Assembly: GCA_003605055.1 (NCBI GenBank)
Contig: QZKP01000018.1
Coordinates: 40,644 to 104,643 of the forward strand
DNA length: 64,000 nt
Reading direction: 5' to 3'
Source of the DNA: Desulfarculus sp.
GTDB lineage: Bacteria > Desulfobacterota > Desulfarculia > Desulfarculales > Desulfarculaceae
The stretch's first letter is position 1. Each line of letters starts with the position of its first letter. Positions 8,474 to 64,000 of the stretch are shown here, piece after piece. Under the pieces are notes generated by a model. The model saw only the letters and a list, made by a program, of their open reading frames with translations. It was not told the DNA's origin and ran no database searches. Position numbers and translations under genes: made by a program.

Positions 8474-8514
8474 TCTCGCTGGTCTTTGCTCCTAGTTCGG
8501 CCTGAATGCGTCTT

Positions 8515-18002: not shown

Positions 18003-18007
18003 GGCGG

Positions 18008-25350: not shown

Positions 25351-25383
25351 AGATGATTCGTTCATAACTTATGGAGAATTTTA

Positions 25384-26544: not shown

Positions 26545-26555
26545 GAGAGTGAGGC

Positions 26556-27749: not shown

Positions 27750-27752
27750 GCC

Positions 27753-28496: not shown

Positions 28497-28508
28497 AAGG
28501 GCAGGGCC

Positions 28509-47426: not shown

Positions 47427-47454
47427 CCGTCAACCCAAACCGGAAGGAACAGCC

Positions 47455-48630: not shown

Positions 48631-48688
48631 ATCTCGCGGCCCGGCCCCCTGGCGGGGGCCGGGCGGCACAGGAAAAGGGGCGATCACC

Positions 48689-49096
48689 TTGGCGAAGAAA
48701 AAGCTTGTTCTCAGTTTTCCACCCCGGCTGATTCAAGAGCCGGTCACCTACAACCTCATCCGCCAGTACGACCTGCAGGTGAACATCCTGCGGGCCACGG
48801 TCCACCCGCGGGAGCGGGGCCGCATGGTGGTGGAGCTGCAGGGCAGCAAGAAGAGCCTGGACCAGGGCCTGGCCTACCTGGAGGAGCAGGGGGTGCAGGT
48901 GGACACTCTGGTGCAGGAGATGCGCCACTACGACGAGCGCTGCGTGCACTGCACCGCCTGCACCGCGGTCTGCCCCACCGACGCCCTTACGGTGGATTCC
49001 CAAACTCGAGAGTTGGTATTCGACGCCTCTCAGTGCATAATGTGCGAATCATGTATCGCGGCCTGTTCCTATGGGGCCATGGAGAGCCAGTTCTAG
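48689..49096 (+). CDS. NIL domain - 2x[4Fe-4S] ferredoxin protein (MA1822-like partner)
   Basis: N-terminal NIL-like domain (PVTYNLIRQYDLQVNILRA). C-terminal CVHCTACTAVCP and CIMCESCIAAC motifs. TTG start. Confidence 0.78.
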   Translation: MAKKKLVLSFPPRLIQEPVTYNLIRQYDLQVNILRATVHPRERGRMVVELQGSKKSLDQGLAYLEEQGVQVDTLVQEMRHYDERCVHCTACTAVCPTDALTVDSQTRELVFDASQCIMCESCIAACSYGAMESQF

Positions 49097-49179
49097 CGAC
49101 AGTGGGCTGACACCGCTCTCTCTGGAAGGGCCGATTGGCACTGGCAGGCAGCCCGGCCCCGGCTGCGCGTTGGGTCCGC

Positions 49180-52100
49180 ATGCCATTTAGCAAATATATA
49201 CCACCCCGGCGGCTGATCCTGGCCTGGCTGGTGCTGGTGGGCCTGGGACTGCGCCTTTGGGGCCTGGCCTGGCAGCCCGGCGGGTCCCAGGGTCTGCCCC
49301 TGGGCGCGTGGGGCTGGCGGGTGATAGAGCACCTCAACTGGACCCAGCCCACCTATCCCGGCCTGTGGACCCAGACCTTCTTCTCCCTGGCGGCCCTGGT
49401 GCAGGGCGCGGCCTCGCTCCTGGGAGGCCTACTGGAGCTGATGCTGGGCCAGGTGCGCTACCTGGCCGACGTGCGCCTGTCCGGTCTGTTGGCCGGCCGC
49501 CTGTGCGTGGCCGCGTTGGGGGCCGCCCAGATACCCATGGTCTATCTGCTGGGCCGGCGCTGCTTCGACAGCGTGGCCACGGGCCTGCTGGCCGCGGTGC
49601 TGGTGGCTTTCAGCCCGCTGCTGGTGGCCCGCGGACACTACCTGACCTTGGACGTCCCCCTGGGCTTCATGGTGCTGTTGTGCGCCTGGCTGGCCTGGCT
49701 GGTGATGGAGTCGCCCCGGGCCAGCCTCTTTTTCGCCCTGGGCCTGGCCCTGGGCCTGACCGTCACCATCAAGCCGGCCGGCCTGGCGGCCGCACCCTTG
49801 GCCCTGGCCGCCACCCTGCTGGTGCTGTGGCGCAGCGACCGGGGCTCCTGGCGCTGGCTGCTGCTGTGGCCGGCCTACGCCTTGGCCGGCCTGCTGCTGG
49901 GGCTGATCCTGGGCTCGCCGGGCCTGGTGCTGCACCCGCGGGACCTGGCCTCCCTGGACCTGCGGCAACTGGGTTTGTTCGTGGAACAGGACTGGTGGTC
50001 CTTCATCCAGCAGCGCGGGCGGCAGGCGGCCGAGCTGCTCTTGGGGGTGCAGGGCCTGGAGGTGGCCCTGCTGTGGCTGATAGGGTTGGCCATTCTCATT
50101 GATCGCCGGCAGGTGCAGCGCTGCCTGATCGCCCTGAGCCCCCTGCCGTTCATGCTGGCCGGCCTGCTCTTGCCCAGCGGCTCCTCCGAGGGCTGGCTGG
50201 CCTCCTGGCTGCCCGCGGCGGCGGTGGCGGCCTGCTGGCCCCTGGTGCTGCTCTGCCGCCGGCTGCCCCGCTTCCGCATGCAGGTGACGGCGGTGCTGCT
50301 CCTGGCCCTGGCCCTGGGCCTGTTCTCCTGCTGGCGCTCCCTGGCCGTGGGCTATCTCTTCTGGCAGCAGGGCACCCTGCAGGCCGCGCGGCAATGGCTG
50401 CAGGACAACCTGGCCCCGGAGGACAAGCTGTTGGCCGGCCCCGGTCTGCCCCTGGACATAGCCGCCGGAGCGCGGCCCTGGGGCAAGGGGCAATCTCTGG
50501 AACAAATCCTGGGCCAGGGGCAGTACCTGGTGGTGTCGGCCTGGCCGGGCCACGACCGCAGGCAACCGCCGGCCCCGCCGCCGGAGCTGCTGGCCTCCCT
50601 GCAACTAATAAAGCGCCTGGACCTGAAGTCCGGCTGGGGCCCGGGCCGCTGGTGGCCGGAGGCCAACTTCCCCAGCGGCATCAGCCCGCGGGTGGAGGTC
50701 TACTCCCCGCGCCCGGCCAGCCACATCAACCAGCCCCTGGCCCTGGCCCGGCCGCTGGTGGGCTACCGACGGCCCTACACCGTGGTCTATGGCCAGGTGT
50801 CGGCCTACAGCCGCGACGACGGCCAGATGTTGCTGGAGGCCCCTGGCGGCGGCCGGCGGGTGCTGCGCCTGGAAAACCCCCGCGAGGCCTTGGGCCTGCG
50901 CCTGACCAACCTGGGTCAGGAGCTGAGCGAGGTGGAGGTGAGCCAGGGGCCCTGGCCCGACCGCTGGATCACGCTCTATCCGGGCCAGAGCACCGATTTG
51001 ATCCTGAAGGCCCGGGCCTGGCCGCCCATGGCCAGGGGCATCTACCCCTTGGGCGTGCGCCTGCGGCGGCCGGGGCGCATACTGGCCCATCTGGAGCACG
51101 AGGCCCTGCTTTTGGGCAAGCGGGAATTGGAGGCGGGCCGCTGGCAGGTCGCGCTGCCTTGGCTGCAGAAGGCCCTGCAACAGCAGGAGAGCTTTGACGC
51201 GCGCGTGATGCTGGCCGGGGCCCAGTCCAGCCTGGGGCGCTACGGGGACGCCAGCCGCACCCTGGCCGCGCTACCCGGCCAAGTGGCCCGCGAGTACCTG
51301 GCCCTGGCCGGCGAACCCCGCGGCCCGCGCTGGGACCGCCGCCTGGCCGCGCTCACCGGCTACCACCTGGACCTGCTGCGCCGGGCCGGGTCCCTGAGCT
51401 ATAAGGTGGACGGCCCCTTGTGCGTGAGCGACGGCCGGGAGGTCAGCCTGCGGGGCAACGGGTATCACGGCAGCTACCGCCGTCCCAAGCAGGGCAACGG
51501 CGGCAGGCTGGCCCTCTGGCTGGCCGACCCCTATCCCCAGGGACTCTGGCGGCTGGACCTGGACCTGAGCAGCCCGGCGCGCACCAGTCCCCAGGAGCAG
51601 TTGGCCCGGGTGGAGGTCTGGGGCCGCAACGGCACGGCCAGCGAAATCCTGGCCAAGATGCCCATCCTGGGCCGCGACCTGCAGGGGGGCCGGGGGCGGG
51701 TGATGGTCCCCCTGCGTATCCCCTGGAGCGCGGGCAGCCTGGAGCTAAGGCTGTTCTACACCTCCCCCCACCCGCTGCGCCTGGAATCCCTGCGTGTGGG
51801 CGCGGACCTGCGGGCCCACATGGCCTGGGTACTGCGCTGGTATCACGAGGCCTGGGGCCAGGTTTCCCTGAACGCCGGACGCTTTCAGGCCGCTGTGGAT
51901 TCCTTCCAGGCCCTGCTGAAGCTGGACCCGGGCTGCCATCAGATTTACCTGCCCCTGGCCAAGTCTCTGCTGGAAACGGGCAAGCTGCCCCAGGCCCTGG
52001 AGATGGTGCGGCGGGCCGAACAGGCCTTCCCCTCGTTCCCGGATCAGTTGCAGGGCGCGGCCGAGCTCTACAAGCTGCTGCAGAAGCCCAAGGACGTGGC

Positions 52101-52545
52101 CCGGGTGGAGGCCCGCCTGGCCCACCTGCGCCCCTCTCTGAAAAAGGAGAGCCGCTTCGAGGAGGGACTGACCCTGTTAGGCTACGACCTGCCCAAAAAC
52201 CAGATCAAGGTCGGCAACCGGCTGGACGTGAACTTCTACTGGCGGGCCTGGCAGAAGGTGCCCTGGGATTACGTGGTGTTCCTGCACCTGCGGGGCCCCG
52301 GGCGGGTGCTCAACTACGACCACAACCTGGACCAGGGCCGGCTGGCCATGCCCTCCTTGAAGCCCGGGCAGGTGGTGCGCGAGGACCTGCACCTGAACAT
52401 ACCCGCGGACACGCCCCCCGGCGCCTATCGCCTGGTGCTGGGTATGTGGGACCCCCACTTCATGCGCGAGCCCCTGTCCGTGGCGCAGGGCCAGGGCGAA
52501 GGCAGCCGCGAGGTGGTGGTGGGCGAGGTGAAGTTGCTCCAGTAA
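49180..52545 (+). CDS. Giant GT-C/ArnT-PMT-like polytopic membrane protein with TPR-like region and C-terminal beta modules (protein A)
   Basis: N-terminal ~400 aa has many TM helices in an ArnT/GT39-like layout (LRLWGL..., YLLGRRCF, TIKPAG). The middle holds helical TPR-like repeats. The C-terminus LLGYDL...FYWRAW...DYVVFLHL...PPGAYRLVLGMWDP is common in GT39-like proteins. The ORF extends to a TTG at 49135. Confidence 0.7.
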   Translation: MPFSKYIPPRRLILAWLVLVGLGLRLWGLAWQPGGSQGLPLGAWGWRVIEHLNWTQPTYPGLWTQTFFSLAALVQGAASLLGGLLELMLGQVRYLADVRLSGLLAGRLCVAALGAAQIPMVYLLGRRCFDSVATGLLAAVLVAFSPLLVARGHYLTLDVPLGFMVLLCAWLAWLVMESPRASLFFALGLALGLTVTIKPAGLAAAPLALAATLLVLWRSDRGSWRWLLLWPAYALAGLLLGLILGSPGLVLHPRDLASLDLRQLGLFVEQDWWSFIQQRGRQAAELLLGVQGLEVALLWLIGLAILIDRRQVQRCLIALSPLPFMLAGLLLPSGSSEGWLASWLPAAAVAACWPLVLLCRRLPRFRMQVTAVLLLALALGLFSCWRSLAVGYLFWQQGTLQAARQWLQDNLAPEDKLLAGPGLPLDIAAGARPWGKGQSLEQILGQGQYLVVSAWPGHDRRQPPAPPPELLASLQLIKRLDLKSGWGPGRWWPEANFPSGISPRVEVYSPRPASHINQPLALARPLVGYRRPYTVVYGQVSAYSRDDGQMLLEAPGGGRRVLRLENPREALGLRLTNLGQELSEVEVSQGPWPDRWITLYPGQSTDLILKARAWPPMARGIYPLGVRLRRPGRILAHLEHEALLLGKRELEAGRWQVALPWLQKALQQQESFDARVMLAGAQSSLGRYGDASRTLAALPGQVAREYLALAGEPRGPRWDRRLAALTGYHLDLLRRAGSLSYKVDGPLCVSDGREVSLRGNGYHGSYRRPKQGNGGRLALWLADPYPQGLWRLDLDLSSPARTSPQEQLARVEVWGRNGTASEILAKMPILGRDLQGGRGRVMVPLRIPWSAGSLELRLFYTSPHPLRLESLRVGADLRAHMAWVLRWYHEAWGQVSLNAGRFQAAVDSFQALLKLDPGCHQIYLPLAKSLLETGKLPQALEMVRRAEQAFPSFPDQLQGAAELYKLLQKPKDVARVEARLAHLRPSLKKESRFEEGLTLLGYDLPKNQIKVGNRLDVNFYWRAWQKVPWDYVVFLHLRGPGRVLNYDHNLDQGRLAMPSLKPGQVVREDLHLNIPADTPPGAYRLVLGMWDPHFMREPLSVAQGQGEGSREVVVGEVKLLQ

Positions 52546-52584
52546 GGCTCCGGCCCATCGGCCCCGCCGGCCCCCCAGCCTTTC

Positions 52585-55500
52585 TCAGTCCAGGCGCTCC
52601 ACGGCCGCACCGGCCAGCTTGAGCGGCCCCCCGCGCCGGTACAGCACCCGCAGCCCCAGCTCGCAGCGCCGCGTGAGCCTGAACTCCACCAGCACATCCC
52701 GGTACCCCGGCCCCAGGTCGCGGCCGCGCACCAGGGCGTGGCCCAGGGGCAGACGGCCCAGGTCCGTGGCCGCCACCAGCTCGGCCAGCAGGGCCTGGGG
52801 CGGCGCCGGCTGCGGGGCGGCCAGACGGAAGCGGGCCCGGTAGCGGCCGGGGCCGTAGGTCTGCTGGGGGCCGTGCATGAGATACAGCTCCGGGTCGCGC
52901 TGGGGCCGGGCCAGCACGGCCAGGCCGCCGGGCACGGACGGGTCCGGCACCAGGGCGCCGGTCTGCCGCCAGAGGCGGCTGGCCGGATAAAACGGCGGCG
53001 GCTGCGCGCCCTCGGCGAAGCCTATAAGCACCAGGTCCAGGGCCAGGTCGCTCTTGCCGTAGAAGCGGGTGTGCAGGTCCAGGTGCGCCGCCTGCTCCAG
53101 GCTGAAGGCCAACTCCACGTCGTGCCAGCGGCCGTCGGCGGGCAGAGCCTCTGGCGCCAGCTCCCGGCCGGCCAGCATGGGTCCGCCGCCCGCGCGGCGC
53201 ACCTCGATGCGCCCCGGCGGCTCGCCGGGCCCCCGCTTCAGGCGGAAGCGGGCCAGGTAGCGCCCCGGCGGGTAATAGCGGTAGGGCTGGAAGAAGGCTA
53301 CTGGCCGGGAGGAGAGCAGGCCGGGCCGGTCCCGGCCGGCCTGGGCCAGGGCCACGTTGCCGGCCGGCCGGGGCAGGCGGGTCCCCAGGGGGCCGCCGGG
53401 CGTGGCCTGCTCGGCGAACAACAGGCCCCAGCCCGAGGCCTCCTCGTCCTCCACCAGCCGTCCGGTGTCGCGCTGCAGCCAGGGGGCCTCCCACAGGCTG
53501 GTCACCGGCGAGGTCAGGCCGCCGACCTGGGCCGGCTGGGCGCTAAGTTGCGGGGCGAAGAGAAAGACCGTCCCCTCCAGAAATAGAGGCCGCAGCAGGC
53601 CGCTGGCCTGCAGCCGCTCCCGGCTCAGGGCCGGCGGAAAGGCGCTGAGCCAGTAGGGGAAGGCCTGGTCGTCGTCGTGGAAGGTGACCAGGCCCACCCG
53701 CAGCCGGCGCAGGGTTTGCAGGGCCTGGGGCGTTACCTGGCCCAGGTTCAGCCCCTGCAAGGGCCGGTATATCTCCTGCTCATAGCGGCGGTGGGCCAGG
53801 GGCGAGTAGCCGTTGACGGACAGGGCCCGGGTGGCGGTGATGGTCAGCTCGTACAAAGAAGACTGGTGGGCGTGGCCCGGCCAGATGGGCAGCTCCAGCA
53901 GCCGCCGGTCCGCGGCCGGCCCGGTGGGCAGGTTCTTTTTGATGGCCGTCGTCAGGCCGGCCGGAATGCTGGCCAGGGAAAGCCCCGGCGGCCCGGGCGG
54001 CCAGTATCCCCACACCAGGAGGGCCGCCAGCGCCAGGACCAGGCTGACGCCGGCCGCCGGCCGCGCGGCCCAGCGCCGCCTGATCTCCCGCAGCAGCCAG
54101 GCGGCCAGCAAGCCCAGGAAAAGGGCCCCCAGCAGGAGCATGCGGCCGGGCACCCGCGGGTAGTTGAAAAAGGGCAGGTGGCGGTAGAGCAGCCCGTAGA
54201 GGGGAAAGGCCGGCAGGTTGGGGCCCAGGCTCAGGAGGCTGAAGCCCACCCCCAGCCCGGCCCACAGGGAGGCCAGGCCGGCCCCGCGCAGGCGCGAGGC
54301 CCGCGCCAAGCCCAGCCAGGCCAGGCCGGCTAGGGCCAGGCCGGCCAGCACCCAGCCCAGGAAGGCCAGCCGCTCCATGCGGGAGTCGAACAGGTCGGCC
54401 AGCCGGGGGGCGAAGAAGCCCGCCTCGGCCAGGCTGCGGCCCCCGCCGGCCTGGCTGGGGGCCAGGATCGGGCCCAGGCTGCCCAGGATATAGGCCGCGG
54501 CCAGGGCCAGGCCTAGGGCCGGCAGGAGCAGGGGCCTGAGCAGGGGCGCGGCCTCCCTGCCCGGCCCCTGCCAGATCGGCCGCAACCGCCGGCTCAGGCG
54601 CCACAGGCCCCAGGCCCCCAGGAGCAGCAGAAGGCCGGCCCCCAGGTGCGGGAGGTCCCAGACCAAGCGCAGGGCGTACAGCGGGGCCAGGGCCAAGGGG
54701 GCCAGGCCCGCGGCCGCGACCGCCCGCGCCTGCGCCAGGCCCAGCCGGCTCAGGGCCCGGACCAGGGCGGCCAGCAGCAGCCAGAGGGTCCAGATCAGGA
54801 TCAGGTACAGGGCCAGGCAAGTGAAAAGCTGGCCCACGGAGAAGCCCAGGCCTGGCGCCGGCCACTGCCGCAGATAGGCGAATATGCCCAGCCCCAGGCC
54901 CGCGGCCAGCACCGGAAGCCAGGGCCTGCCGCCGTCCTTAGTCTCTTCCGCCGCGGGCCTGTCAGCCGGGCGATGCAGCAGGACCTTGAGCGGCGTGTAG
55001 ATGACCAGCAGCAGGGCCAGGTAATAGATCAGGTGCGGGTCCAGCAGAGCGGCCACCAGCAGCGCGCCGCCCGCGCCCGCGCCCCAGGCCAGCCAGGCAG
55101 CCCGGCGTCCGGCCAGGCTGGCCCGCCAGGCCCGCCCAAGGCACCACAGGCACAGGGGCAGCATGAAGGCCACGAAGCCGTAGAGGTGGCCGCCGGCCAC
55201 CTCGGAGGTGCGCGCGGGCAGCAAGGCGAAGCACAGGGCCGCCAGCAACGCCGCCCAACGGTCCTGGAGTAGGTCGCGGGCCCAGACATAGGCCAGCAGG
55301 CCGGCCAGGACAAAGGACAGCAGCACCAGCAGATTGTAGGCGGTCAGGGGCCCCAGGGGCCGCAGCAGGGCGTACAGGGCCGAAAAAGGGAACAGGGCGT
55401 AGACCCCCCGCAGCCCGGGCGAGAGGAAGGTGTTGAACTCGTAGGGGTTTGTGAACATCCGCGAGGGGCCGGTCAGGTTGTCGGTGAACAGCCAGCACCA

Positions 55501-55725
55501 ATAATAGAACTGCAGATGGTCGCCTGGGACCAGGGTGGGCGGCGGCGCGCCCGGCTGGGTCTGGTAGGTGGGCGCGGCATGGAAGCTATAAGGGATGGCC
55601 TGGGACAGGAACCGGGACAGAGGCCAAGTGTAGGCCTGGGCCAGGGCCAGCAGCACAAGGGCGATCAACAGCAGCCATGGCCACTGGAATCCGCGCCTGT
55701 CCCGCTTGTTTCCCGGCTCCGGCAA
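52585..55725 (-). CDS. Giant polytopic membrane protein, GT-C-like, tandem paralog 2 (protein B)
   Basis: 1046 aa. Loop motif VPGDHLQFYYWCWLFTDNL after TM1, GHLYGFVAF, LPFFNYPRVPGR, more than 12 hydrophobic segments. Soluble C-terminal ~450 aa with two PGRY..RFRL modules. TTG start with GGGGAGAG upstream. Confidence 0.75.
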   Translation of the reverse strand: MPEPGNKRDRRGFQWPWLLLIALVLLALAQAYTWPLSRFLSQAIPYSFHAAPTYQTQPGAPPPTLVPGDHLQFYYWCWLFTDNLTGPSRMFTNPYEFNTFLSPGLRGVYALFPFSALYALLRPLGPLTAYNLLVLLSFVLAGLLAYVWARDLLQDRWAALLAALCFALLPARTSEVAGGHLYGFVAFMLPLCLWCLGRAWRASLAGRRAAWLAWGAGAGGALLVAALLDPHLIYYLALLLVIYTPLKVLLHRPADRPAAEETKDGGRPWLPVLAAGLGLGIFAYLRQWPAPGLGFSVGQLFTCLALYLILIWTLWLLLAALVRALSRLGLAQARAVAAAGLAPLALAPLYALRLVWDLPHLGAGLLLLLGAWGLWRLSRRLRPIWQGPGREAAPLLRPLLLPALGLALAAAYILGSLGPILAPSQAGGGRSLAEAGFFAPRLADLFDSRMERLAFLGWVLAGLALAGLAWLGLARASRLRGAGLASLWAGLGVGFSLLSLGPNLPAFPLYGLLYRHLPFFNYPRVPGRMLLLGALFLGLLAAWLLREIRRRWAARPAAGVSLVLALAALLVWGYWPPGPPGLSLASIPAGLTTAIKKNLPTGPAADRRLLELPIWPGHAHQSSLYELTITATRALSVNGYSPLAHRRYEQEIYRPLQGLNLGQVTPQALQTLRRLRVGLVTFHDDDQAFPYWLSAFPPALSRERLQASGLLRPLFLEGTVFLFAPQLSAQPAQVGGLTSPVTSLWEAPWLQRDTGRLVEDEEASGWGLLFAEQATPGGPLGTRLPRPAGNVALAQAGRDRPGLLSSRPVAFFQPYRYYPPGRYLARFRLKRGPGEPPGRIEVRRAGGGPMLAGRELAPEALPADGRWHDVELAFSLEQAAHLDLHTRFYGKSDLALDLVLIGFAEGAQPPPFYPASRLWRQTGALVPDPSVPGGLAVLARPQRDPELYLMHGPQQTYGPGRYRARFRLAAPQPAPPQALLAELVAATDLGRLPLGHALVRGRDLGPGYRDVLVEFRLTRRCELGLRVLYRRGGPLKLAGAAVERLD

Positions 55726-55746
55726 AAAAGGCTCTCCCCTACGACC

Positions 55747-58700
55747 TCAGGGCGCGGGCTGCACCGAGGCGCCGGCCAGCTTCAGGGAGGCGCCTTGGGC
55801 GTAGAGCACCCGCAGGTCCAATTCTGCCTGCCGGGGCAGGGTGAAGTCCACGGCTATGTCCTGGTAGTCCGGCCGCAGCTCTCCGGCCTTGACCAGGCGA
55901 CGACCCAGGATCAGGCGGCCCAGGTCCGTGGCCACCACCAGCTCGGCCGCGGGCAGCCCGGCCGGCCCGGGCTGCAAAAGGGCCAGGCGGAAGCGGGCCC
56001 GGTAGCGTCCGGGGGGGTAGGTCTGGTGGGGGCCGTGCATCAGATACAGCGGCGGGGTGTAGCCCCGGCGGGCGGCCACGGCCAGGCCGCCGGGCGCCGC
56101 GGGGTCGGCCAGCAGGTCCCCGGCCTGACGCCAGAGCTGGCTGGCCGCGTAAAAGGGCTGCGGCGCGGCCCGGTCCGCAAAGCCCACCAGCACCAGGCAA
56201 AGCTCCAGGTCGGCCGCGCCGCTGAAATAGGTGCGCAGCTCCAGGCGGGTGAAGGCCGCCAGCTCCAGGGGCAGGCCCACGTCGTGCCAGGCGCCGTCGG
56301 CCGGCAGCCGCTCCGGCGTGAGCGCGGCGCTGGCCAGCACCCGGCCCTGGCGGTCGCTGGCCTCCACCCGGCCCGGCACCGCGCCCGGCCCGCGGCGCAG
56401 GCGGAAGCGCAGCAGATAGCTGCCCGGCGGCAGGGGCCGTCCCGGCCCTTGGCTGAGCCAGCCGGGCTGGTCGCGGCCCACGCGGGCCTGGGCCACGTTG
56501 CCGGCGAAGCGGCCCAGGCGCGGACCCAGGGGCGCGCCCGGCCGGGCCGGCTCGGCGAACAAGAGGCCCCAGCCCGAGGCCTGCCGGTCCTCCTTCAGCC
56601 GTCCGGTGTCGCGGCCCAGCCAGGCCGCGGGCCACAGCACAACGGCCGGCGAGCTCACCCGGCGCTCGCGGCCGTCGAGCCGGGCCCGGTAGTCCGGCCG
56701 CAGCAGGAACACATTGCCCTCCTGGCGCAGGGGCTGGAAGGCGCCGCTGGCCTCCAGGCGGCGGCGGGCCAGGTCCGGCGGGAAGGGGCTCACCTTGCTA
56801 GTGTAAACCTCTGCATCGCTGTAAAAGGCCACCAGCCCCACCTGGAGGCGCTCCAGGGTGCGCAGAGACTCCTGATTCACCTCGCCCAGGTCCAGGGGAT
56901 ACAGGGGCCAGAAGACCTGGGCCACGTAGGCCCGGGGCACCAAGGGGGCGTAGCCGTTGACCAGGCGGGCCCGGGTGCGGGTGACCAGGAACTCGTACAC
57001 CGAGGACTGGTGCGAGTCGCCGGGCCAGAGGGGCAGGCCCAGCAGGCGCTGGGGGCTCCGCGGCCCGCCGGGCAGGGCCGAGCGCACCGTGGCCTCCAGG
57101 GGCCCGGAAGGCGGCACCAGGCAGATGCCAGGGCGGGCCGGCGGCCAGAGGTCCCAGACGATCAGGACCGTCAGGGCCAGGCCCAGGGCCAGGACTGCGC
57201 CGCGCCGGCGGCGCAGGGGCCGGGCCAGCTCGCGCAGAGCCCAGCCGCCGGCCAGGGCCAGCAGCAGCACCGCCAGGATGACCAGCCGGCCGGGCACCCG
57301 GGGGAAGTTGAAGAAGGGCAGGTGCCGGTACAGGAAGCCGTACAGGGGGAGCTGGGGCAGGTTGGGCCCCAGGCAGAGCAGGCCGGCCAAGAGGCCCAAG
57401 GCGCTCCACAGCGCGGCCAGCATGCCGCCCTTGGCCCCGGACGGCCGGCCCAGGGCCAGCAGCACCAGCCCGGCCAGGGCAAGGGCCAAGAGCACCAGCC
57501 CCAGGTACACGAGCTGCTCGGAGTTGGCGGCCTGCGGGCTGAACAGATCGCCCAGGTGCGGGGAGAACAGGCGCACCTCGCTCCAGGCGCGGCCGGCCCC
57601 GGCGATGCTGGCGTCCATGGTGCGGCGCTTGAGGATCAGCATGGCCGCCAGGCCCAGGCCCCAGCCCAGGCCCAGGGGGATCAGCGGCGCCCAGGAGCCC
57701 GGAGGCCAGGCGGGCATCCGGCGGGCGCGCCACAGCCCGGGCAGGCAGCGGGCCGCGCCCCAGACCACAATGGCCAGGGCCAGCAGCTTGCCCAGGTGCG
57801 GAATTGGCAGCCAAAACTGCACGGCGTAAACCGGGCTGAGCACCAGGGGCAGCAGGCCCCGGGCCAGGGCCCGGCGGCAGGGGGCCGGCCCCAGGCTGGT
57901 CAGGGCCACGGCCAGCCAAGACAGCAGCAGCCACAGGGCCAGCACCACCACCAGGCCCAGGGCCAGGCTGACGGCCAGGCCGCCTGCGCCCGCGGCCCCG
58001 GCGCGAACCGCGCCCAGGGCCAGACCCGCGGCCAGCACCATGGCCAGGCTGGGCCAGTCCAAGGCCTGGTCCTCCTGGGGCATGTCCTCCCGGCCGCGCA
58101 TGATCAGGCGCAGGGGCAGATACAGGCCCAAGAGCAGGGTGCTGTAATAGAAGAGGTGGCTCTCCATCAGGCCCAGGGACAGCAGCGCCAGGCCCGCGCC
58201 CGCGCCCCAGAGCCAGGGCCGCCATTGCCAGCCCCGCTCCAGGCACCACAGGCAGAGGGGCAGCAGGAAGGCGATGAAGCCGTACAGGTGGCCGGAGAGC
58301 GCCTGGGAGGCCCGGAAGGGCAGCAGGGCGAAGATCAGGGCCGCGAGCCAGGCGGCCAGGCCCTGGCCCAGCACCTGCCGGGCCAGGGCAAAGGCCATGA
58401 GCCCGGCCAACAGGTAGCTCAACAGCACCAGGGCGTTGTAGGCCGGCAGGGCCCCCAGGGGCCGCAGGGCCAGGTAGAGCAGGGAGAAGGGGAAGTTGGC
58501 GTACAGGGCGATGCCCTGGGGGTGCAGGAAGGTGGAGAACTCATAGGGGTTGCTGAACAGGGGCGAGGGCCCCAGCAGGTTGTCGGTGAACAGCCAGCAC
58601 CAGTAATAGAATTGCAAATGGTCGCCGGGGACCAGAGGGACCCGCTCCCAGCCGGGCACGGGCCAATATACATAAGGCAGGCCTCGGCCGAAGTCGGCGG

Positions 58701-58806
58701 CCAGGGGCCAGGTGTAGACCAAGGCCAGGGCCAGCAGCAACAGGCCTAAAAGCGCCGTCAGCCACGCGCTCCCTCGGGCCGCGGGCGGCTGATTAAGCGG
58801 GCTCAC
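55747..58806 (-). CDS. Giant polytopic membrane protein, GT-C-like, tandem paralog 1 (protein C)
   Basis: 1019 aa, collinear with protein B (VPGDHLQFYYWCWLFTDNL, GHLYGFIAF, LPFFNFPRVPGR, GRYRARFRL). The GTG start overlaps the stop of the upstream gene (GTGA). Confidence 0.75.
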   Translation of the reverse strand: MSPLNQPPAARGSAWLTALLGLLLLALALVYTWPLAADFGRGLPYVYWPVPGWERVPLVPGDHLQFYYWCWLFTDNLLGPSPLFSNPYEFSTFLHPQGIALYANFPFSLLYLALRPLGALPAYNALVLLSYLLAGLMAFALARQVLGQGLAAWLAALIFALLPFRASQALSGHLYGFIAFLLPLCLWCLERGWQWRPWLWGAGAGLALLSLGLMESHLFYYSTLLLGLYLPLRLIMRGREDMPQEDQALDWPSLAMVLAAGLALGAVRAGAAGAGGLAVSLALGLVVVLALWLLLSWLAVALTSLGPAPCRRALARGLLPLVLSPVYAVQFWLPIPHLGKLLALAIVVWGAARCLPGLWRARRMPAWPPGSWAPLIPLGLGWGLGLAAMLILKRRTMDASIAGAGRAWSEVRLFSPHLGDLFSPQAANSEQLVYLGLVLLALALAGLVLLALGRPSGAKGGMLAALWSALGLLAGLLCLGPNLPQLPLYGFLYRHLPFFNFPRVPGRLVILAVLLLALAGGWALRELARPLRRRRGAVLALGLALTVLIVWDLWPPARPGICLVPPSGPLEATVRSALPGGPRSPQRLLGLPLWPGDSHQSSVYEFLVTRTRARLVNGYAPLVPRAYVAQVFWPLYPLDLGEVNQESLRTLERLQVGLVAFYSDAEVYTSKVSPFPPDLARRRLEASGAFQPLRQEGNVFLLRPDYRARLDGRERRVSSPAVVLWPAAWLGRDTGRLKEDRQASGWGLLFAEPARPGAPLGPRLGRFAGNVAQARVGRDQPGWLSQGPGRPLPPGSYLLRFRLRRGPGAVPGRVEASDRQGRVLASAALTPERLPADGAWHDVGLPLELAAFTRLELRTYFSGAADLELCLVLVGFADRAAPQPFYAASQLWRQAGDLLADPAAPGGLAVAARRGYTPPLYLMHGPHQTYPPGRYRARFRLALLQPGPAGLPAAELVVATDLGRLILGRRLVKAGELRPDYQDIAVDFTLPRQAELDLRVLYAQGASLKLAGASVQPAP

Positions 58807-61256
58807 GGGGTCCGGGCCCTCGCCGATTTCAGACGCGGGACAATGGACAGGGAGTGCAGCACCAGGCGGTCTCTACCGGTGGTGCCCACGCGCACCTCCA
58901 GGTGGCGGGCTCCCCGGGGCAGGTCAAACTCCAGGACCAGGGGCTTGCCCAACTGCTGGCCGCTCACCTGGCTGCGGGTGAGCACCTGGCGGCCCTTGTC
59001 CAGGCTTACGTCCAGCCAGGCCACCAGTTGCGGGCCCCGGTAGGGGCCGCTCAGGCGGGCGGTGACCTGGTAGCGGCCCGGCGGCAGGTTAAGGTACTGG
59101 CCCCAGAGGAAAAGCTTGGGCGCAGCCAGAGGCGGCACCGTCACCGCCTCGGCCCCCTCGCTCACCGGCTTGGCCGGGAAGCGCGAGTAGCGGGCCGGGG
59201 GCAGGGAAAGCTCCAGCAGGGCCTCCTGGGGCTGCGGCCCGGCCGGGCCCACCCGCCAGGAGGGGCCCTCGCCCGGGAAGACCCGCGCCCGCTCCCATAG
59301 GGCGATGCGATGGGCCGGGTTGCGGTAGGCGGTCAGGCCCGGCCCGATGCGGTCGGCGGCGGTGGCCGCCCCGGCCACCACCAGGAAGGCCCCCAGCAGG
59401 CAGATCAGGGCCGATATGGGCGAGAATCGCTGGCCGTCCACCTGCAGGGCCAGCACCACCACCCCGGCCACGCACAGCCAGATCAGGCCCAACTGGGCGT
59501 TAAGCGCGGGCTGCTGGTGCGCGAAGATGTAGGCCGGCAGCAGGTTCTCCACCAGGGGGAATTGCAGGCCCTGGCCCAGCACCACACTGTGGCCATAGAC
59601 CGCCGAGGGGTAGTGCATGACGAAGGCCGCCGCGGCCACGGTCAGCACCGCCAGCATCACCGTGACCAGCATGAAGCGGCGCGGGGCCCAGCGGGCGCCG
59701 GCGGCCATGCCCAGGGCCAGGAAGGGCACCGCGGCCACCAGGTAGCGGGCCGGCGGGTTGATGCCCCCGAACCAGTCCGCGTACAGGCCGGCGGTGAGGT
59801 AGGTGGCCAGGGCCATCAACAACACCCAGAAGCCGTCCCCCGGCCGCCGGCGCAGCAGCCAGATCAGGCCGGCCACCGCCGCCATCCAGATGGGGCTGTA
59901 GGGCAAGAGCCCCTCGCCGGCGTCCACCCACAGGCCGCTGAGCCCCTCCCAGGCGCCGCGCGGGTTCAGATAGGCTCCCTGGGCGTGGATATGCGGGTCG
60001 GGCAGGGGCGTGCCGTACAGATGGCTGAAGTAGGTGCTCAGCAGCCAGGCCGAGACGATGCAGGGCAGGAAAAAAGCCATGACGCCGCCGAAGCTGCGCC
60101 AGTGGCCGCGGACCAGGGCGTAAAAGGCCAGGAGCACCGAAAGCAGGATGAAGCGCTCGTGGAACCAGGCTAGATAGGCGGCCAGCACCCCGGCCAGCAG
60201 GAGCATGCCGTATTGGCCCGGCTGGGCCATGCGCAGGCGGCGGAAGGCGGCCACGCTGAAGGCCGCCGCGGCCATCTCCGGGAACAGCAGGTTGGAATAG
60301 AGCAGGCCCGGCAGGGCCAGGGCCGCGGCCGCCGCCGACAGCAGGGCCGGCCCCTCCCGTCCGGTGTAGAAGCGGGCCAGCCAGAACACCTCCAGCACCA
60401 TCCAGGCCCCCAGCAGCCAGACTAGTATGGTGGCCAGCTTGCGCGGGCCCAGGTCGCTGTAGAGTCCCCAGGCGTAGAAGGGCGAAAGCAGGGCGGGCAG
60501 GCCCGGCCGGTGGTTGGAGACCCAGGAGCGGTCCGGGGTCCAGGTGCCGTGGCCCAGCACCAGCCGGGCCGGGTCGCTGAAGTAGGAGTTTTCGCGCAGG
60601 AGGATGTTGTCCAGCAGGTCCAGGTCGCGGTCCACAGCCAGGCTGTGGGTGCCCAGCAGATAGGAGGGCTCGTCGCCGGCCATGAGGTAGCCGGTCTGGC
60701 CGCTGACCTCGTTGAGGCGCACACCCACCCCGGCGAACACTCCCAGGGCCAGCAGGAACACCAGCGGCGCCAGCCAGAGCCGGTGGTCGGAGCGGCCCCG
60801 GCGCAGCAGCTCCGGCGCGGCCAGGCGGGTCTGCAGCAGCACGGCGGCGGCCACGGCCAGGGCGGCCAGGGGCCAGGCCTCGCGTCCCAGGGCCAGGGGA
60901 GCGGTGCTGAAGCCGTACAGGGGCCAGCACAGCTCCATCAACGGCACCAGCAGCAGGGCCAGGCAGGGCCACCACGCGCGGTAGGCCCGGCGGTAGGCCT
61001 GGGGGCGATCCAGGGCCTGCTGGGCCAGCCAGCCCCGCTGCCACAAGGCCACCAGGAACTGCAACAGCCAGGCGCCCAGGCCAATGGCCACCGTCTGCCA
61101 CCAGGGCGGCCAGACCCACAGCACCGCGACCTGTCCGTCGGGCTTGGTGGTCATGACCAAGGCCCAGCGGGAAGCCGCGAAGACCGCCCAACTGAAGCCG
61201 GCCAGCAAGGTGGCTGGTTGCCAGTAACCGACGGTTTTAGAGTCGCCTTGACTCAT
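58803..61256 (-). CDS. GT-C glycosyltransferase-like polytopic membrane protein with GDEPSY loop motif (protein D)
   Basis: 817 aa from ATG 61256, which forms an ATGA overlap with the upstream gene. GDEPSYLL (60660-60677) follows a TM helix as in ArnT/PMT-type GT-C enzymes. More than 12 TM segments. C-terminal PPGRYQVT...LEFDL module. Confidence 0.75.
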   Translation of the reverse strand: MSQGDSKTVGYWQPATLLAGFSWAVFAASRWALVMTTKPDGQVAVLWVWPPWWQTVAIGLGAWLLQFLVALWQRGWLAQQALDRPQAYRRAYRAWWPCLALLLVPLMELCWPLYGFSTAPLALGREAWPLAALAVAAAVLLQTRLAAPELLRRGRSDHRLWLAPLVFLLALGVFAGVGVRLNEVSGQTGYLMAGDEPSYLLGTHSLAVDRDLDLLDNILLRENSYFSDPARLVLGHGTWTPDRSWVSNHRPGLPALLSPFYAWGLYSDLGPRKLATILVWLLGAWMVLEVFWLARFYTGREGPALLSAAAAALALPGLLYSNLLFPEMAAAAFSVAAFRRLRMAQPGQYGMLLLAGVLAAYLAWFHERFILLSVLLAFYALVRGHWRSFGGVMAFFLPCIVSAWLLSTYFSHLYGTPLPDPHIHAQGAYLNPRGAWEGLSGLWVDAGEGLLPYSPIWMAAVAGLIWLLRRRPGDGFWVLLMALATYLTAGLYADWFGGINPPARYLVAAVPFLALGMAAGARWAPRRFMLVTVMLAVLTVAAAAFVMHYPSAVYGHSVVLGQGLQFPLVENLLPAYIFAHQQPALNAQLGLIWLCVAGVVVLALQVDGQRFSPISALICLLGAFLVVAGAATAADRIGPGLTAYRNPAHRIALWERARVFPGEGPSWRVGPAGPQPQEALLELSLPPARYSRFPAKPVSEGAEAVTVPPLAAPKLFLWGQYLNLPPGRYQVTARLSGPYRGPQLVAWLDVSLDKGRQVLTRSQVSGQQLGKPLVLEFDLPRGARHLEVRVGTTGRDRLVLHSLSIVPRLKSARARTP

Positions 61257-61705
61257 GGTTCGGGCAGTCCCAGTTGGGTTCGCCATGGGTCCCAGCGCTT
61301 GTGGCGCAACCAAAAATTGTAAAGCTTCGCGTCGGCCTGGCGAGCGCGGACCAAGGCCTGACGAGCCATCTGCTGGTGGCCGGCCCGCACCTCCAGCCAG
61401 GCCAACTCCAGCCATAAAAGCACCGGATAGGTGCCTTTATACGATTTCATCTCCCGCCAGAGGCGGTCCAAATCCGCCCGCGGGAGCCGGCCCGCGTCCG
61501 CCAGGCTGGCGGCGTGGGCCAGGCCCAGCAGGGGCAGCACCCGGTAGGGCGGCGCCCAATGCTGCGCCAGGCGGTGCTGAGCCGCTTTCTGTCGTAGTGC
61601 CGGTCCCTTATAAAAGGCCCCTGAAACTGCGACAGCCAGCACCAGCACCGACAACACAATCACCACCGGAGGAACCCTTGCGGGTGGACGGCTGGATGAG
61701 TCCAT
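61253..61705 (-). CDS. Small single-pass membrane protein with helical (TPR-like) C-terminal domain (hypothetical)
   Basis: One hydrophobic helix (VVIVLSVLVLAVAVSGAF). The stop overlaps the protein D start. The start is uncertain: ATG 61705, TTG 61720 (with GGAG 7 nt upstream) or TTG 61738. Confidence 0.55.
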   Translation of the reverse strand: MDSSSRPPARVPPVVIVLSVLVLAVAVSGAFYKGPALRQKAAQHRLAQHWAPPYRVLPLLGLAHAASLADAGRLPRADLDRLWREMKSYKGTYPVLLWLELAWLEVRAGHQQMARQALVRARQADAKLYNFWLRHKRWDPWRTQLGLPEP

Positions 61706-61815
61706 AGGGGACAGCTTCAAATTACTGCTCCAGCCCAACCTCCGAGTGGCTTTGCAAGCCGTCGAATATAATATTAATGCACGTTTTGGCTTGCAGCGTC
61801 AAGCTCATCTGTGGG

Positions 61816-62853
61816 TCATTTTTGTACTTCCGGAGGCGCTGCGCAGCCCCCGGTTAGATACCAGGGCACCGCCGGCAGGGCGCTGGCCAGGGCGGCCAGG
61901 TTGGTGACCAGGCCCAGCAGGAAGGCCTGGGTGAAATCCAGGCCCACCAGGCTGAACAAGGCCACATACAGGCCCTCTAAGACCCCGAAGCTGGAGAAGG
62001 AAACTGGCAGCCGCGCCAGCAGAAACACCACCGGGGTCACGGCCGCGGCTTGAATGAGGCTCAGGGGGATGTTCAGGGCCTGGGCCGCCAGCCAGTTGCC
62101 CACGATGGGCGCGGCCTGCTCCAGGAAGGACAGCAGGAGAAACCAGGCCAACACCCCGCGGTGCCGGCGATATTCGTGGTAGGCCTTGATGAAGCGGGAG
62201 AGCCAGGCCAGCAGGCGGCCCCGCTCAAGCATGTGCTGCTCCAGGCGCTGGTGCAGGCGGCCGGCCAGGGCCGAAAAGGAGATGATCACCGCGCCGGCGG
62301 CCCCGGCCAAGATCGCCAGGGACCAGACGAAAAACTCCCGCGGCAGGCGGGTGGTAAGTCCGGTCAGGAGCACCAGGCCGATCACCGCGGCCAAGGCGGC
62401 GGCCACGAACCCCAGAGCCCGTTCTAAGAGCACCGAGGCGGCCATCACCTCGCTGGGGCGCTGGGGCTGGGCCACCAAGCCCACCCGCAGCGCGTCGGCC
62501 CCCAGGGTGGTGGGCAAAAAGCAGCCGGCGAAGCTGGCCAGGTAATAGGCCTTTAGGGCCTCGGCCCAGCCCAAGGGCAGGCCCCGGGCCAGGACCAAGA
62601 GCCGCCACTTGTAGGCCATCAGGAACCGGTCGGCCGTGCTCCAGGCCAACAGCAATAGGAGGTACTGCCAGCGGCAGCCCAGCAGGGCCCGCCAGGCCTG
62701 CCCTAGGTCCACGAAAAATATCAGCAGGATGGTCAGCAGGCCGGCGCTGACCGCGCCCCGCAGCCAGGTTTTGGCGGTCTTGTGCAAAGCGCCCCCTGAT
62801 TCCAACTCCTTAGCAACCCAGGCCACGTTAGCACCTGCCCGCCACAGCGTCAA
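61816..62853 (-). CDS. Flippase-like / lysylphosphatidylglycerol-synthase-TM-region family membrane protein (UPF0104, TIGR00374-like)
   Basis: 345 aa with about 8 TM segments. Pattern R..L.A....G...P...G..LR typical of UPF0104. TTG start, which may be shorter. Confidence 0.65.
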   Translation of the reverse strand: MTLWRAGANVAWVAKELESGGALHKTAKTWLRGAVSAGLLTILLIFFVDLGQAWRALLGCRWQYLLLLLAWSTADRFLMAYKWRLLVLARGLPLGWAEALKAYYLASFAGCFLPTTLGADALRVGLVAQPQRPSEVMAASVLLERALGFVAAALAAVIGLVLLTGLTTRLPREFFVWSLAILAGAAGAVIISFSALAGRLHQRLEQHMLERGRLLAWLSRFIKAYHEYRRHRGVLAWFLLLSFLEQAAPIVGNWLAAQALNIPLSLIQAAAVTPVVFLLARLPVSFSSFGVLEGLYVALFSLVGLDFTQAFLLGLVTNLAALASALPAVPWYLTGGCAAPPEVQK

Positions 62854-62979
62854 CGCAACCCTGGAGGCCGAGGTGTTTGCACTTGCCAGGACCGGTATGA
62901 TTCATTAGGCTTACGCAATTCCAGGGCCCGCGGGCCCGGTGATTGGGCGCAATAACGCATTGGAGACAGCCGCAGCCTC

Positions 62980-64000
62980 ATGTGTGGTCTAAGCGGATTC
63001 AGTTGGGAGGATCAAGGCCTTATTCAGGCCATGAACCAGGTGCTCCGGCACCGGGGCCCCGACGATCAGGGCCGGGCGGTGGGCTTTGGCGCCTCCCTGG
63101 GCCAGACCCGGCTGTCCATCATCGACTTGTCCGAGCGCGGCCGTCAGCCCATGGTCAACGAGACCGGCGACGTGTTCGTGGTGGTAAACGGCGAGATATA
63201 CAACCACCTTGACCTGCGCGCCGAACTGATCCGGGCCGGCCACGTGTTCCACAGCAACAGCGACTCCGAGGTGGTGCTGCACGGCTACGAGCAATGGGGC
63301 CCCCAGGTCATCGAGCGCATTATCGGCATGTTCTGCTTCGCGGTGCTGGACGGGCCCGGCCGGCGGATCATGCTGGGCCGGGACCGCCTGGGCATCAAGC
63401 CCCTGTACTATCACCGAAACGGCAACCGGCTGATCTTCAGCAACGAGATCAAGGCCATGCTGGCCTGGCCCGGGCTGCAGCGCCGGGTGGACCTTACCGG
63501 CCTGTTCCACTACCTGGGCTACGAGTACGTGCCCGCCCCGCGCACCCTGTTCGCGGGCGTGAACAAGCTGAAGCAGGGCCACTACGCCATCTTCGAGCTG
63601 GACAGCGGCCGCTTTGAGGAGCGGCCCTACTGGGACCTGCGCTTTGAGCCCCGCTTTTCCCGGCCCGAGGAGGCGGTGGAGGAGCTGCGGTCCTTGCTCA
63701 AGCTGTCGGTCAAACGCCGGCTGATGAGCGACGTGCCCCTGGGGGTGTTCCTCTCCGGCGGCCTGGACTCCACCACGGTGGTGGCCCTGATGCGCGAGCT
63801 GGGGGTGGAGCATCTGCGCACCTTCTCCATCGCCTACCCGGACCCCAGCTTCAGCGAGCTGGACTACGCCAACGACATGGCCCGGCACTACGGCACCGAC
63901 CAGACGGTCTTGATGATAGAGGGCCTGACCATGGAGGACCTGGAGACGGCGGTCTATCACCTGGACGAGCCCATGACCGATCTGTCGGCCATCCCCCTGA
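62980..64000 (+). CDS. Asparagine synthase (glutamine-hydrolysing) family amidotransferase, 3' end beyond window
   Basis: Not in the supplied ORF track; read by hand from ATG 62980. MCGLSGFSW... (Ntn Cys2), RLSIIDL, NGEIYN, GIKPLYY, and the PP-loop FLSGGLDST. The frame stays open to the window end. Confidence 0.85.
   Translation, partial: MCGLSGFSWEDQGLIQAMNQVLRHRGPDDQGRAVGFGASLGQTRLSIIDLSERGRQPMVNETGDVFVVVNGEIYNHLDLRAELIRAGHVFHSNSDSEVVLHGYEQWGPQVIERIIGMFCFAVLDGPGRRIMLGRDRLGIKPLYYHRNGNRLIFSNEIKAMLAWPGLQRRVDLTGLFHYLGYEYVPAPRTLFAGVNKLKQGHYAIFELDSGRFEERPYWDLRFEPRFSRPEEAVEELRSLLKLSVKRRLMSDVPLGVFLSGGLDSTTVVALMRELGVEHLRTFSIAYPDPSFSELDYANDMARHYGTDQTVLMIEGLTMEDLETAVYHLDEPMTDLSAIPL

Follow-up and report, generated by a model that had tools for sequence, protein, structure and literature searches.

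The question raised by this locus is what a bacterium makes with four very large membrane proteins encoded beside a flippase-like protein and an amidotransferase. The locus occupies positions 49135-64000 of a 64,000-nucleotide stretch of contig QZKP01000018.1 of Desulfarculus sp. (referred to here, at its full length, as the window), and its large proteins, designated A to D, had been described in an initial annotation as GT-C-like membrane proteins. That description is now borne out by the predicted fold for C and D, by Pfam matches for A and by paralogy for B. GT-C enzymes build or decorate envelope polymers, including lipopolysaccharide (LPS) modifications, teichoic acids, arabinogalactan and lipoarabinomannan (LAM), and N- and O-glycans, and they include drug targets (ethambutol). 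On balance, this locus is probably the extracytoplasmic half of a pathway that assembles an envelope glycan, either a polysaccharide or a lipoglycan. The assignment draws on the GT-C folds, carbohydrate-binding module (CBM)-like domains and catalytic-type motifs of its proteins, on operon coupling, on co-occurrence across phyla and on gene fusions.

Proteins B and C

Protein C (55747-58806, minus strand, 1019 aa) and its tandem duplicate, protein B (52585-55725, minus strand, 1046 aa), encoded by the last gene of the minus-strand operon, are the C-type GT-Cs of the locus. Neither has a match in Pfam (E ≤0.1) or NCBIfam, and neither matches a PDB sequence in single-sequence (phmmer) or profile (hmmsearch) comparisons. 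Since sequence searches gave nothing usable for B, C or D, identity could be resolved by structure prediction only; AlphaFold2 models were built for C and D, the GT-C assignment of B is based on paralogy, and that of A comes from Pfam. The model of C, computed from a 67-sequence alignment (pLDDT 95, pTM 0.93), contains about 13 transmembrane (TM) helices, a periplasmic alpha/beta domain and two CBM-like beta-sandwiches. In a Foldseek comparison with the PDB, its membrane domain matches GT-C enzymes only, with a probability of 1.0; the top match is AftD (6wby, E 9.5e-10), followed by AglB, DPY19, ArnT, EmbA/B, AftA and STT3. The C-terminal beta-sandwiches of C (about residues 770-1019) match CBM22/CBM4-type modules, and a beta-sandwich domain with the pattern PPGxYxxxxRL is common to the C-termini of B, C and D.

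The unusual loop motif that the initial annotation had ascribed to both B and C (VPGDHLQFYYWCWLFTDNL) is present in both translations. The same annotation reserved a classic acidic first-loop motif for D, and here it needs amending: D does contain GDEPSYLL, but B and C also carry a catalytic-type aspartate in the first loop, as is characteristic of GT-Cs. This residue, D62 (the Asp of PGDHLQ), sits where the first periplasmic loop helix begins and is invariant, as are L64, Q65 and R406, among others, across 67 members of the C family. The family also conserves R165, E410 and R503, and the motif LPxWPGDSHxSS...NGY is preserved after the last TM helix. B and C are about 51-54% identical (54% over the C-terminal 624 residues, 50.6% over 1023 residues by tblastn and 52% in the family alignment). 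All 39 positions conserved at ≥90% in the C family, including the aspartate of PGDHLQ, are kept in B, which is for this reason probably an active paralogue of C.

A search of 1.84 billion representative proteins with the C-family profile gave 26,857 matches at E ≤1e-3, 9,129 at ≤1e-10 and 1,000 at ≤1e-30, family size (about 1000 at the last threshold) being counted as clusters at 50% identity; more than 150 full-length clusters score above 640 bits. Distant members carry DUF6311, DUF2079, PTPS_related or PMT_2 matches, in some cases DUF6311 together with PMT_2; their sources label them 'GT39' or 'YfhO family', the latter being the NCBI name of P0070. The B/C family is a large branch of the GT-C clan that has no Pfam or NCBIfam model, and a literature search found no papers on the C-type family, on this gene set or on DUF6311 or DUF2079. 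The B/C tandem pair itself is limited to the closest relatives of the window (L001 and the contig carrying P0003 and P0060), and tandem C-type genes are also found in the distant loci L024, L060 and L080.

Several known families were considered and set aside. The YfhO profile (PF09586) matches none of B, C and D at E ≤0.1, and the three show no STT3 signature in the form of a Pfam or NCBIfam match, a WWDYG-type motif or a PDB match with a profile. A role for C as an oligosaccharyltransferase was rejected accordingly, its resemblance to STT3 and AglB being one of fold only. The likeness of C to Emb and Aft proteins does not extend to sequence membership in those families and is limited to the fold and to the architecture of a GT-C domain with C-terminal CBMs.

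Protein D and its small partner

The 870-aa open reading frame (ORF) initially listed for protein D (58803-61415) exists, but it is over-extended. The true start is most likely M54 at 61256, since the ATG there overlaps the stop codon of the preceding small ORF (ATGA) and the orthologue P0122 is also 817 aa long; D would then be an ArnT/PMT-like GT-C of 817 aa (58803-61256, minus strand). Its stop codon overlaps the GTG start codon of C (GTGA). D has no match in Pfam, including PMT_2, one sub-threshold match of 24 bits in NCBIfam and nothing usable among PDB sequences by phmmer or family-profile hmmsearch. Its AlphaFold2 model (pLDDT 90, pTM 0.89) has four extra N-terminal helices and is best matched in Foldseek by ArnT (5f15, E 1.9e-5), with Pmt4, AglB, DPY19, ALG12 and PglB also found, and its one C-terminal domain (about residues 660-817) matches CBM6 (5fui) and CBM4 modules. 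The GDEPSYLL motif, as initially reported, was verified in the translation; within it, G194-D195-E196-P197 is conserved at ≥90% in the D family, so that D195/E196 supply the first-loop acidic residue expected of a GT-C. Among distant D homologues, the one in L025 is adjoined by a 319-aa GT2 and a DedA/VTT protein and accompanied by AlgX/MBOAT acetylation genes, and the one in L026 belongs to an exopolysaccharide (EPS) cluster that includes a Bac_transf priming enzyme.

The small single-pass membrane protein encoded just upstream of D (61253-61738, minus strand, 161 aa) crosses the membrane at about residues 17-48, continues into a helical tail, and has no match in Pfam or NCBIfam. It is found only alongside D, with homologues of 48-84% identity in L001-L003, L028 and L030. 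It is translationally coupled to D and could be a D-specific accessory subunit.

Protein A

Protein A (49135-52545, plus strand, 1136 aa, with an alternative ATG possible at codon 16) is encoded convergently with B. Among the four GT-Cs it alone matches the PMT_2 and PMT profiles of Pfam (38.1 bits against a cut-off of 26.1, and 32.4 bits against 22.7; residues 118-262). Tetratricopeptide repeat (TPR) matches (TPR_19/16/14/2) at residues 903-970 give A a TMTC-like layout, in which a GT-C membrane domain is followed by TPRs, and a beta-rich domain forms the C-terminus. A was initially noted to lack an obvious DE motif, and no Asp or Glu of the first loop is in fact conserved across nine orthologues; the E-W pair of most of these is A-W in the window protein. 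Because of this, A may be non-catalytic or may use another residue. The gene is kept at the same position in L001, L003, L004, L006, L008, L009, L012, L028 and L030-L032. Overall, none of the four large proteins gives a full-length match to a characterised family: B and C have no match, D has only its sub-threshold one, and A is limited to generic PMT_2/PMT and TPR matches.

The ORFs of the cluster, their coding-type third-position G+C content (GC3, 0.86-0.93, in a window with a G+C content of 63-76%) and the overlapping start and stop codons agree with the arrangement first described, in which four large polytopic proteins are encoded by A on the plus strand and a D, C, B operon on the minus strand. 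A promoter-like site lies upstream of A at 49013-49041, and scans for promoters and terminators gave nothing else informative. The block directly 5' of A (46980-49096, plus strand) encodes an Rrf2 regulator, HcyBio (sulfur-incorporating homocysteine biosynthesis, methanogen-type) and a NIL-ferredoxin; it is syntenic with A in all Desulfarculaceae loci, which probably reflects inherited gene order and not a functional link. With MnmA and PtsI, these are housekeeping-type genes unrelated to the cluster.

The UPF0104 and AsnB proteins

The first gene of the minus-strand operon encodes a UPF0104, or MprF-flippase-type (PplT), membrane protein (61816-62853, 345 aa). It matches PF03706 with 100 bits over profile positions 5-295 of 302 and TIGR00374 with 61.4 bits (cut-off 43.2), and its full-length LPG_synthase_TM match places it among MprF-type flippase domains; no aminoacyl-phosphatidylglycerol (PG) synthase domain is present in the window protein. 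A hopanoid context of the HpnL kind was rejected (25 bits against a cut-off of 196). UPF0104 proteins have been proposed as flippases in glycosylation and glycolipid pathways (PMC5898192; PMC12713373; bioRxiv 10.1101/2022.03.11.483950).

A divergent intergenic region (62854-62979, from gene coordinates) separates this operon from the gene of an AsnB-type glutamine-dependent amidotransferase (62980-64000, plus strand), of which the N-terminal 340 aa are included before the window ends. The fragment begins with MCGLSG, containing the Cys2 nucleophile, and matches GATase_7 (144.7 bits) and Asn_synthase (111 bits). The full-length orthologue in L001 belongs with B-type Asn synthases (TIGR01536, 477.6 bits against a cut-off of 267). 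The ORF map and these family matches confirm the initial placement of the small single-pass and UPF0104 proteins at the head of the minus-strand operon, opposite a divergent AsnB gene. The best-scoring model for the L001 AsnB is the XrtA/PEP-CTERM amidotransferase (TIGR03108), at 541 bits against a cut-off of 816.9, and this assignment was rejected, as was that of an NAGGN amidotransferase (425 against 570 bits). Like this AsnB, the GT4 of the system has its best scores, below cut-off, on XrtA/PEP-CTERM-system models, and a link with exosortases is possible.

To judge from L001 (83-92% identical proteins, with AsnB at 92%), L028 and L030, the AsnB operon would continue past the window end with a WcaF-like LbH acetyltransferase, a second UPF0104 protein (UPF0104b) and a signal-anchored PD40 beta-propeller. 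AsnB is followed by LbH and UPF0104b in L001, L002, L013, L028 and L030, and PD40 is seen after UPF0104b where the locus reaches that far (L001, L002 and L013). In L006 (1477-2100), L012, L014, L020, L035, L037, L048 and L053, AsnB/LbH is adjoined by a small protein (about 130-207 aa, 26-50% identity) that matches no family; it was not found in the 64 kb of the window.

Conservation, neighbourhoods and fusions

The closest relatives of the window are metagenome-assembled genomes (MAGs) and isolates of the Desulfarculales/Desulfarculaceae, including L001 ('Thermodesulfobacteriota MAG279', 83% protein identity), Desulfocarbo indianensis (L008) and Desulfoferula mesophila (P0008). Desulfarculaceae loci share a constant frame, in which PD40, UPF0104b, LbH and AsnB genes stand divergently to UPF0104, a cassette and a C-type GT-C gene, with A converging on the last of these. 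The divergent UPF0104/AsnB arrangement is also seen in L001-L003, L006, L012-L014, L028 and L030. The cassette between UPF0104 and C varies. It consists of the small protein and D in the window, L001-L003, L028 and L030; of radical SAM/SPASM, GT9, GtrA, PMT_2+PA14 and PA14 genes in L004, L006 and L008 (partially in L012, L014 and L032); and of an A-like PMT_2/TPR protein in L013. With at least three alternative cassettes at one site, the locus resembles a serotype-like variable glycan locus.

Co-conservation of the gene set thus extends across the Desulfarculaceae, and its core (C-type GT-C, AsnB, LbH, two UPF0104 proteins and PD40) recurs where the C-type protein is only 24-41% identical. A metagenome scan yielded 18 distant loci of ≥12 kb with C-type proteins in this identity range. 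LbH is the most frequent partner (13/18), followed by a Dpm1-like GT2 (9/18), by AsnB, UPF0104 (often in two copies) and GT4 (8/18 each), by radical SAM/SPASM (7/18) and by PD40 (3/18); four of the 18 have none of the partners. L019, whose C-type protein is 34% identical, has AsnB, UPF0104, LbH, UPF0104 and PD40 genes, in this order, in one tightly overlapping operon, which is followed by a GT2 and a 907-aa ILEI-domain protein adjoining the C-type gene, with GT4 and radical SAM/SPASM genes on the other side. L020 (40% identical) combines AsnB, LbH, radical SAM, GT4, PMT_2, C-type, UPF0104, GT9 and GT2 genes, and the order in L048 and L056 is C, GT4, AsnB, LbH, UPF0104, UPF0104b and PD40. In related loci, lectin-type domains (PA14, discoidin or ILEI) are found on the partner GT-Cs. 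In a different setting, a distant C-type gene (P0094, in L017/L018) is surrounded by genes for two PEP-CTERM proteins, a polysaccharide pyruvyl transferase, PMT_2/TPR proteins and a Wzt-type ABC transporter.

Two gene fusions provide independent evidence of functional linkage. P0296 (1189 aa), a continuous ORF in L027, joins an N-terminal UPF0104 domain (129 bits on PF03706; 31% identical to the window UPF0104) to a complete C-type GT-C, and P0302 (1122 aa) joins an N-terminal LbH domain to a C-type GT-C. The first of these strengthens the connection between the flippase-like protein and the GT-Cs that the initial annotation had drawn from their proximity.

Donor-side enzymes and sugar genes

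The GT2 that recurs in related loci is a 233-aa protein whose best match, over the full catalytic domain, is the Pyrococcus dolichol-phosphate mannose synthase (5mlz, E 2.9e-29), followed by ArnC and GtrB; in NCBIfam it resembles AglJ, Dol-P-hexose transferase, ArnC and PpgS. The GT4 of these loci resembles MshA, PimB' and PimA, and its NCBIfam matches are to PEP-CTERM-system GT4s and GlcNAc-PG synthase, all below cut-off (67.6 against 480 bits for the latter). GtrA is present in L004, L006, L008, L012 and L037. A GtrB-like GT2 and GtrA are both present among related Desulfarculaceae and distant loci, and both are missing from the window, which does not hold a Gtr-type three-component system.

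The initial statement that nucleotide-sugar, Wzx/Wzy and ABC exporter genes are missing holds for 49-64 kb, but not for sugar genes in the whole window. At 25357-29174 (plus strand), about 20 kb from the GT-C cluster, genes for an Fe-alcohol dehydrogenase, a DegT/DnrJ aminotransferase, a CTP_transf_3 cytidylyltransferase and a 225-aa protein of no known family lie back to back in what looks like a CMP-activated amino-sugar or phosphonate-type cassette. At 6321-8491 (minus strand), a 452-aa GT2 with a mannosylglycerate-synthase-like domain (6.3-7.7 kb) adjoins an MscS channel and CorA; this enzyme probably serves compatible-solute synthesis and is not the missing polyprenyl-phosphate sugar synthase.

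A proposed pathway and its alternatives

In the proposed pathway, sugars would be loaded onto polyprenyl phosphate and/or a lipid anchor at the inner membrane face. These sugars may be tailored in the cytoplasm, the AsnB-type enzyme amidating a carboxylate and the LbH enzyme, from a gene just past the window, adding O-acetyl groups, in keeping with the N-terminal, cytoplasmic LbH domain of P0302 and with precedents in O-antigen and EPS loci. Such precedents are WbpS-type uronamide formation for AsnB and WcaF-type O-acetylation for LbH. UPF0104 proteins would translocate the lipid-linked intermediates to the periplasmic face, as the UPF0104 literature cited above suggests. There, D, C and B would move sugars from lipid-phosphate donors to a growing glycan, using the first-loop Asp for catalysis, and A possibly takes part in sugar transfer. 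Periplasmic use of polyprenyl-phosphate sugar donors would follow established GT-C biology (ArnT, PglB, Emb/Aft and YfhO; PMC8035078, PMC5836110). The periplasmic CBM-like domains of D, C and B may hold the acceptor, and, with the PA14 and discoidin modules of related proteins, they favour a glycan over a protein in that role. The acceptor would be a lipoglycan if the GT4 acted like PimA and primed a lipid anchor. The folds, co-conservation and fusions all support the view, put forward in the initial annotation, that lipid-carrier-dependent transferases and a flippase-like protein act together in periplasmic glycosylation.

A broader proposal is more tentative. It is possible, though doubtful, that the C-type GT-C marks a widespread uncharacterised envelope pathway, in which a glycan that is lipid-anchored and amidated or acetylated is primed on the cytoplasmic side, flipped by UPF0104 and polymerised outside by CBM-bearing GT-Cs, with a version that makes a lipoglycan resembling lipomannan (LM)/LAM. 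The recurrent partners of such a pathway would be AsnB, LbH, twin UPF0104 proteins, the PD40 propeller, the Dpm1-like GT2, the PimA-like GT4 and a radical SAM/SPASM enzyme. If true, this would provide a counterpart of LM/LAM assembly in diderm anaerobes and make UPF0104 a new class of lipid-linked-glycan flippase.

A number of points weigh against assigning the locus to envelope-glycan assembly. The 64-kb window contains no polyprenyl-phosphate glycosyltransferase, GtrA, GT4 or priming transferase, so that the donor-side genes must lie elsewhere in this genome; this is the main gap of the model. TM-scores to solved GT-C structures are modest (0.3-0.5), and A, given its first loop, may be inactive. 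To our knowledge, flippase activity of a stand-alone UPF0104 protein on polyprenyl-phosphate sugars has not been demonstrated, and we know of no characterised member of the B/C and D families. Synteny inside the Desulfarculaceae could partly reflect inheritance rather than function, the distant loci L051 and L066 are probably from one organism, so that the co-occurrence counts are not fully independent, and C-type genes stand alone among housekeeping genes in L016, L021, L041 and L046.

Other explanations of the locus must be considered alongside this one. ArnT is the best fold match of D, GT9 heptosyltransferase-like genes and GtrA occupy the equivalent cassette in L004, L006 and L020, and the UPF0104-C cassette varies between genomes in the manner of a serotype locus; these observations would fit a system that decorates LPS, in which lipid A, core or O-antigen would receive single residues from the GT-Cs on the periplasmic side, as with ArnT or Gtr-type serotype conversion, and no separate polymer is made. 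However, four large CBM-bearing GT-Cs exceed known LPS decoration systems, the best matches of C are polymer-building AftD, Emb and AftA proteins and oligosaccharyltransferases, and ArnC/ArnEF-like genes were not found in the window. C-type homologues also occur in MAGs named by their sources as Actinomycetota and Chloroflexota, phyla in which classical LPS is not expected. LPS decoration is therefore regarded as unlikely.

Glycosylation of periplasmic or surface proteins, with the GT-Cs acting as O-mannosyl- or oligosaccharyl-transferases, would assign A a TMTC/PMT-like, TPR-guided function and C an AglB-like one. The GT-C and TPR architecture of A does resemble that of TMTC proteins (PMC7801869), AglB, STT3 and DPY19 are among the top fold matches of C, and Pmt4 and PglB among those of D; PEP-CTERM proteins adjoin the distant C-type gene of L017, and related loci repeatedly encode radical SAM/SPASM enzymes, a group that often acts in peptide maturation. 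Against this stand the missing WWDYG-type motif and STT3 sequence signal, the soluble domains, which resemble CBM22/4/6 and not peptide-binding domains, and the first loop of A, which lacks the conserved DE motif of PMTs; nor is any obvious Ser/Thr-rich or sequon-rich substrate gene conserved at the locus. Such a function is held to be quite improbable. It is very unlikely that UPF0104, AsnB and LbH make and flip a modified glycolipid or aminolipid in the style of GpgSDF/HexSDF or MprF, with the GT-Cs as mere neighbours: the fusions of UPF0104 and LbH to C-type proteins and the tight operons with C-type GT-Cs argue for one pathway. Lipid remodelling does agree with experiments on UPF0104 domains, which to date connect them with phospholipid and glycolipid pathways (PMC12713373; bioRxiv 10.1101/2022.03.11.483950), and with the resemblance of the GT4 of related loci to PimA/PimB' and GlcNAc-PG synthase. 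If the lipid were an anchor elongated by the GT-Cs, this explanation would merge with the lipoglycan version of the envelope-glycan pathway.

Assembly of an envelope glycan is thus retained as the working assignment, and it bears on several problems. The C-type family is large and its predicted structure is very confident, yet it matches nothing in Pfam, NCBIfam or PDB sequences and none of its members has been studied. The UPF0104/GT-C partnership, including the fusion, offers a concrete route by which the suspected flippase role of stand-alone MprF-type domains can be tested. The locus also defines a gene set for finding the corresponding surface glycan in sulfate-reducing Desulfarculales and other environmental bacteria.

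Other features of the window

A tRNA-Val gene (CAC anticodon; 12253-12327, minus strand) is the sole RNA family match in the window, and there are no Rfam matches near the GT-C cluster. Three other ORFs combine several domains, the first two in an unusual way. At 42274-43413 (plus strand), directly 5' of PtsI, a TP_methylase (RsmI-like) domain and PTS-HPr share one ORF, and at 41264-42268 (plus strand) RNase HII and UPF0102 (YraN) do so; either could be a real fusion or a read-through of adjacent genes. A 932-aa protein (15327-18125, minus strand) joins DHH/DHHA1, CBS and PolyA_pol head (CCA-adding/poly(A) polymerase) domains.

Comparison with known systems

Individual components of the locus recall several known systems. 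D folds like ArnT (of the ArnT/ArnC/ArnEF system) and fungal Pmt4, with a DE motif in the first loop, and A matches PMT_2/PMT; however, D lacks a PMT_2 match, has four additional N-terminal helices and a CBM6-like domain, and no Arn pathway genes lie nearby. A shares with TMTC1-4 and bacterial PMT_2-TPR proteins (PMC7801869) an N-terminal GT-C domain followed by TPRs, but lacks a conserved acidic first-loop residue and has an extra C-terminal beta-rich domain.

In GtrA/GtrB/GtrC and in CsbB-GtcA-YfhO, which acts on lipoteichoic and wall teichoic acids (LTA/WTA), the polyprenyl-phosphate sugar made by a GT2 is carried across the membrane by a small flippase and transferred by a GT-C on the outer side (PMC5836110, PMC8035078). 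The proposed pathway follows that logic, GtrA and a Dpm1-like GT2 occur in related loci, and the homologue P0070 bears the YfhO name; the differences are that there are four GT-Cs rather than one, that no YfhO Pfam match is found, and that UPF0104 replaces or accompanies GtrA. The archaeal parallels are AglD, in which a GT2 and UPF0104 form one protein and PMT/STT3-like GT-Cs are encoded nearby (Makarova et al. 2015, PMC5898192), and Haloferax volcanii AglS. There too UPF0104, a predicted flippase, is coupled to Dol-P-sugar synthases and GT-Cs, as it is here in operons and in the UPF0104+GT-C fusion. The present system, however, is bacterial, fuses UPF0104 to a GT-C and not to a GT2, includes no oligosaccharyltransferase, and its target is probably not an N-glycan. 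GpgSDF/HexSDF likewise encode UPF0104 with a GT4 and a sugar-tailoring enzyme (PMC12713373), and the GT4 of related loci does score on the GlcNAc-PG synthase model, though far under the cut-off; tailoring here falls to AsnB and LbH instead of a deacetylase, and Gpg and Hex have no GT-C.

In its logic the locus also resembles the assembly of LM/LAM and arabinan in the periplasm of mycobacteria and corynebacteria, which employs PimA/PimB' GT4s, Ppm1/PpgS GT2s and the GT-Cs PimE, MptA/B, EmbA/B/C and AftA-D. Both pathways use several large GT-Cs, some with C-terminal CBMs; AftD is the top match of C, which also matches EmbA/B and AftA, and related loci add Dpm1/PpgS-like GT2 and PimA/PimB'/MshA-like GT4 genes. 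The window proteins share no detectable sequence similarity with that system, even by profile against the PDB, and the host is a diderm member of the Desulfarculales. The partners also differ, comprising the flippase-like UPF0104 together with AsnB, LbH, PD40 and radical SAM proteins, the last four of which have no counterpart there. Lipid-carrier-dependent extracytoplasmic glycosylation by GT-Cs is a kind of system already known; what is new are the components and their partner set, namely a large unmodelled GT-C family accompanied by twin UPF0104 proteins, AsnB, LbH and PD40.

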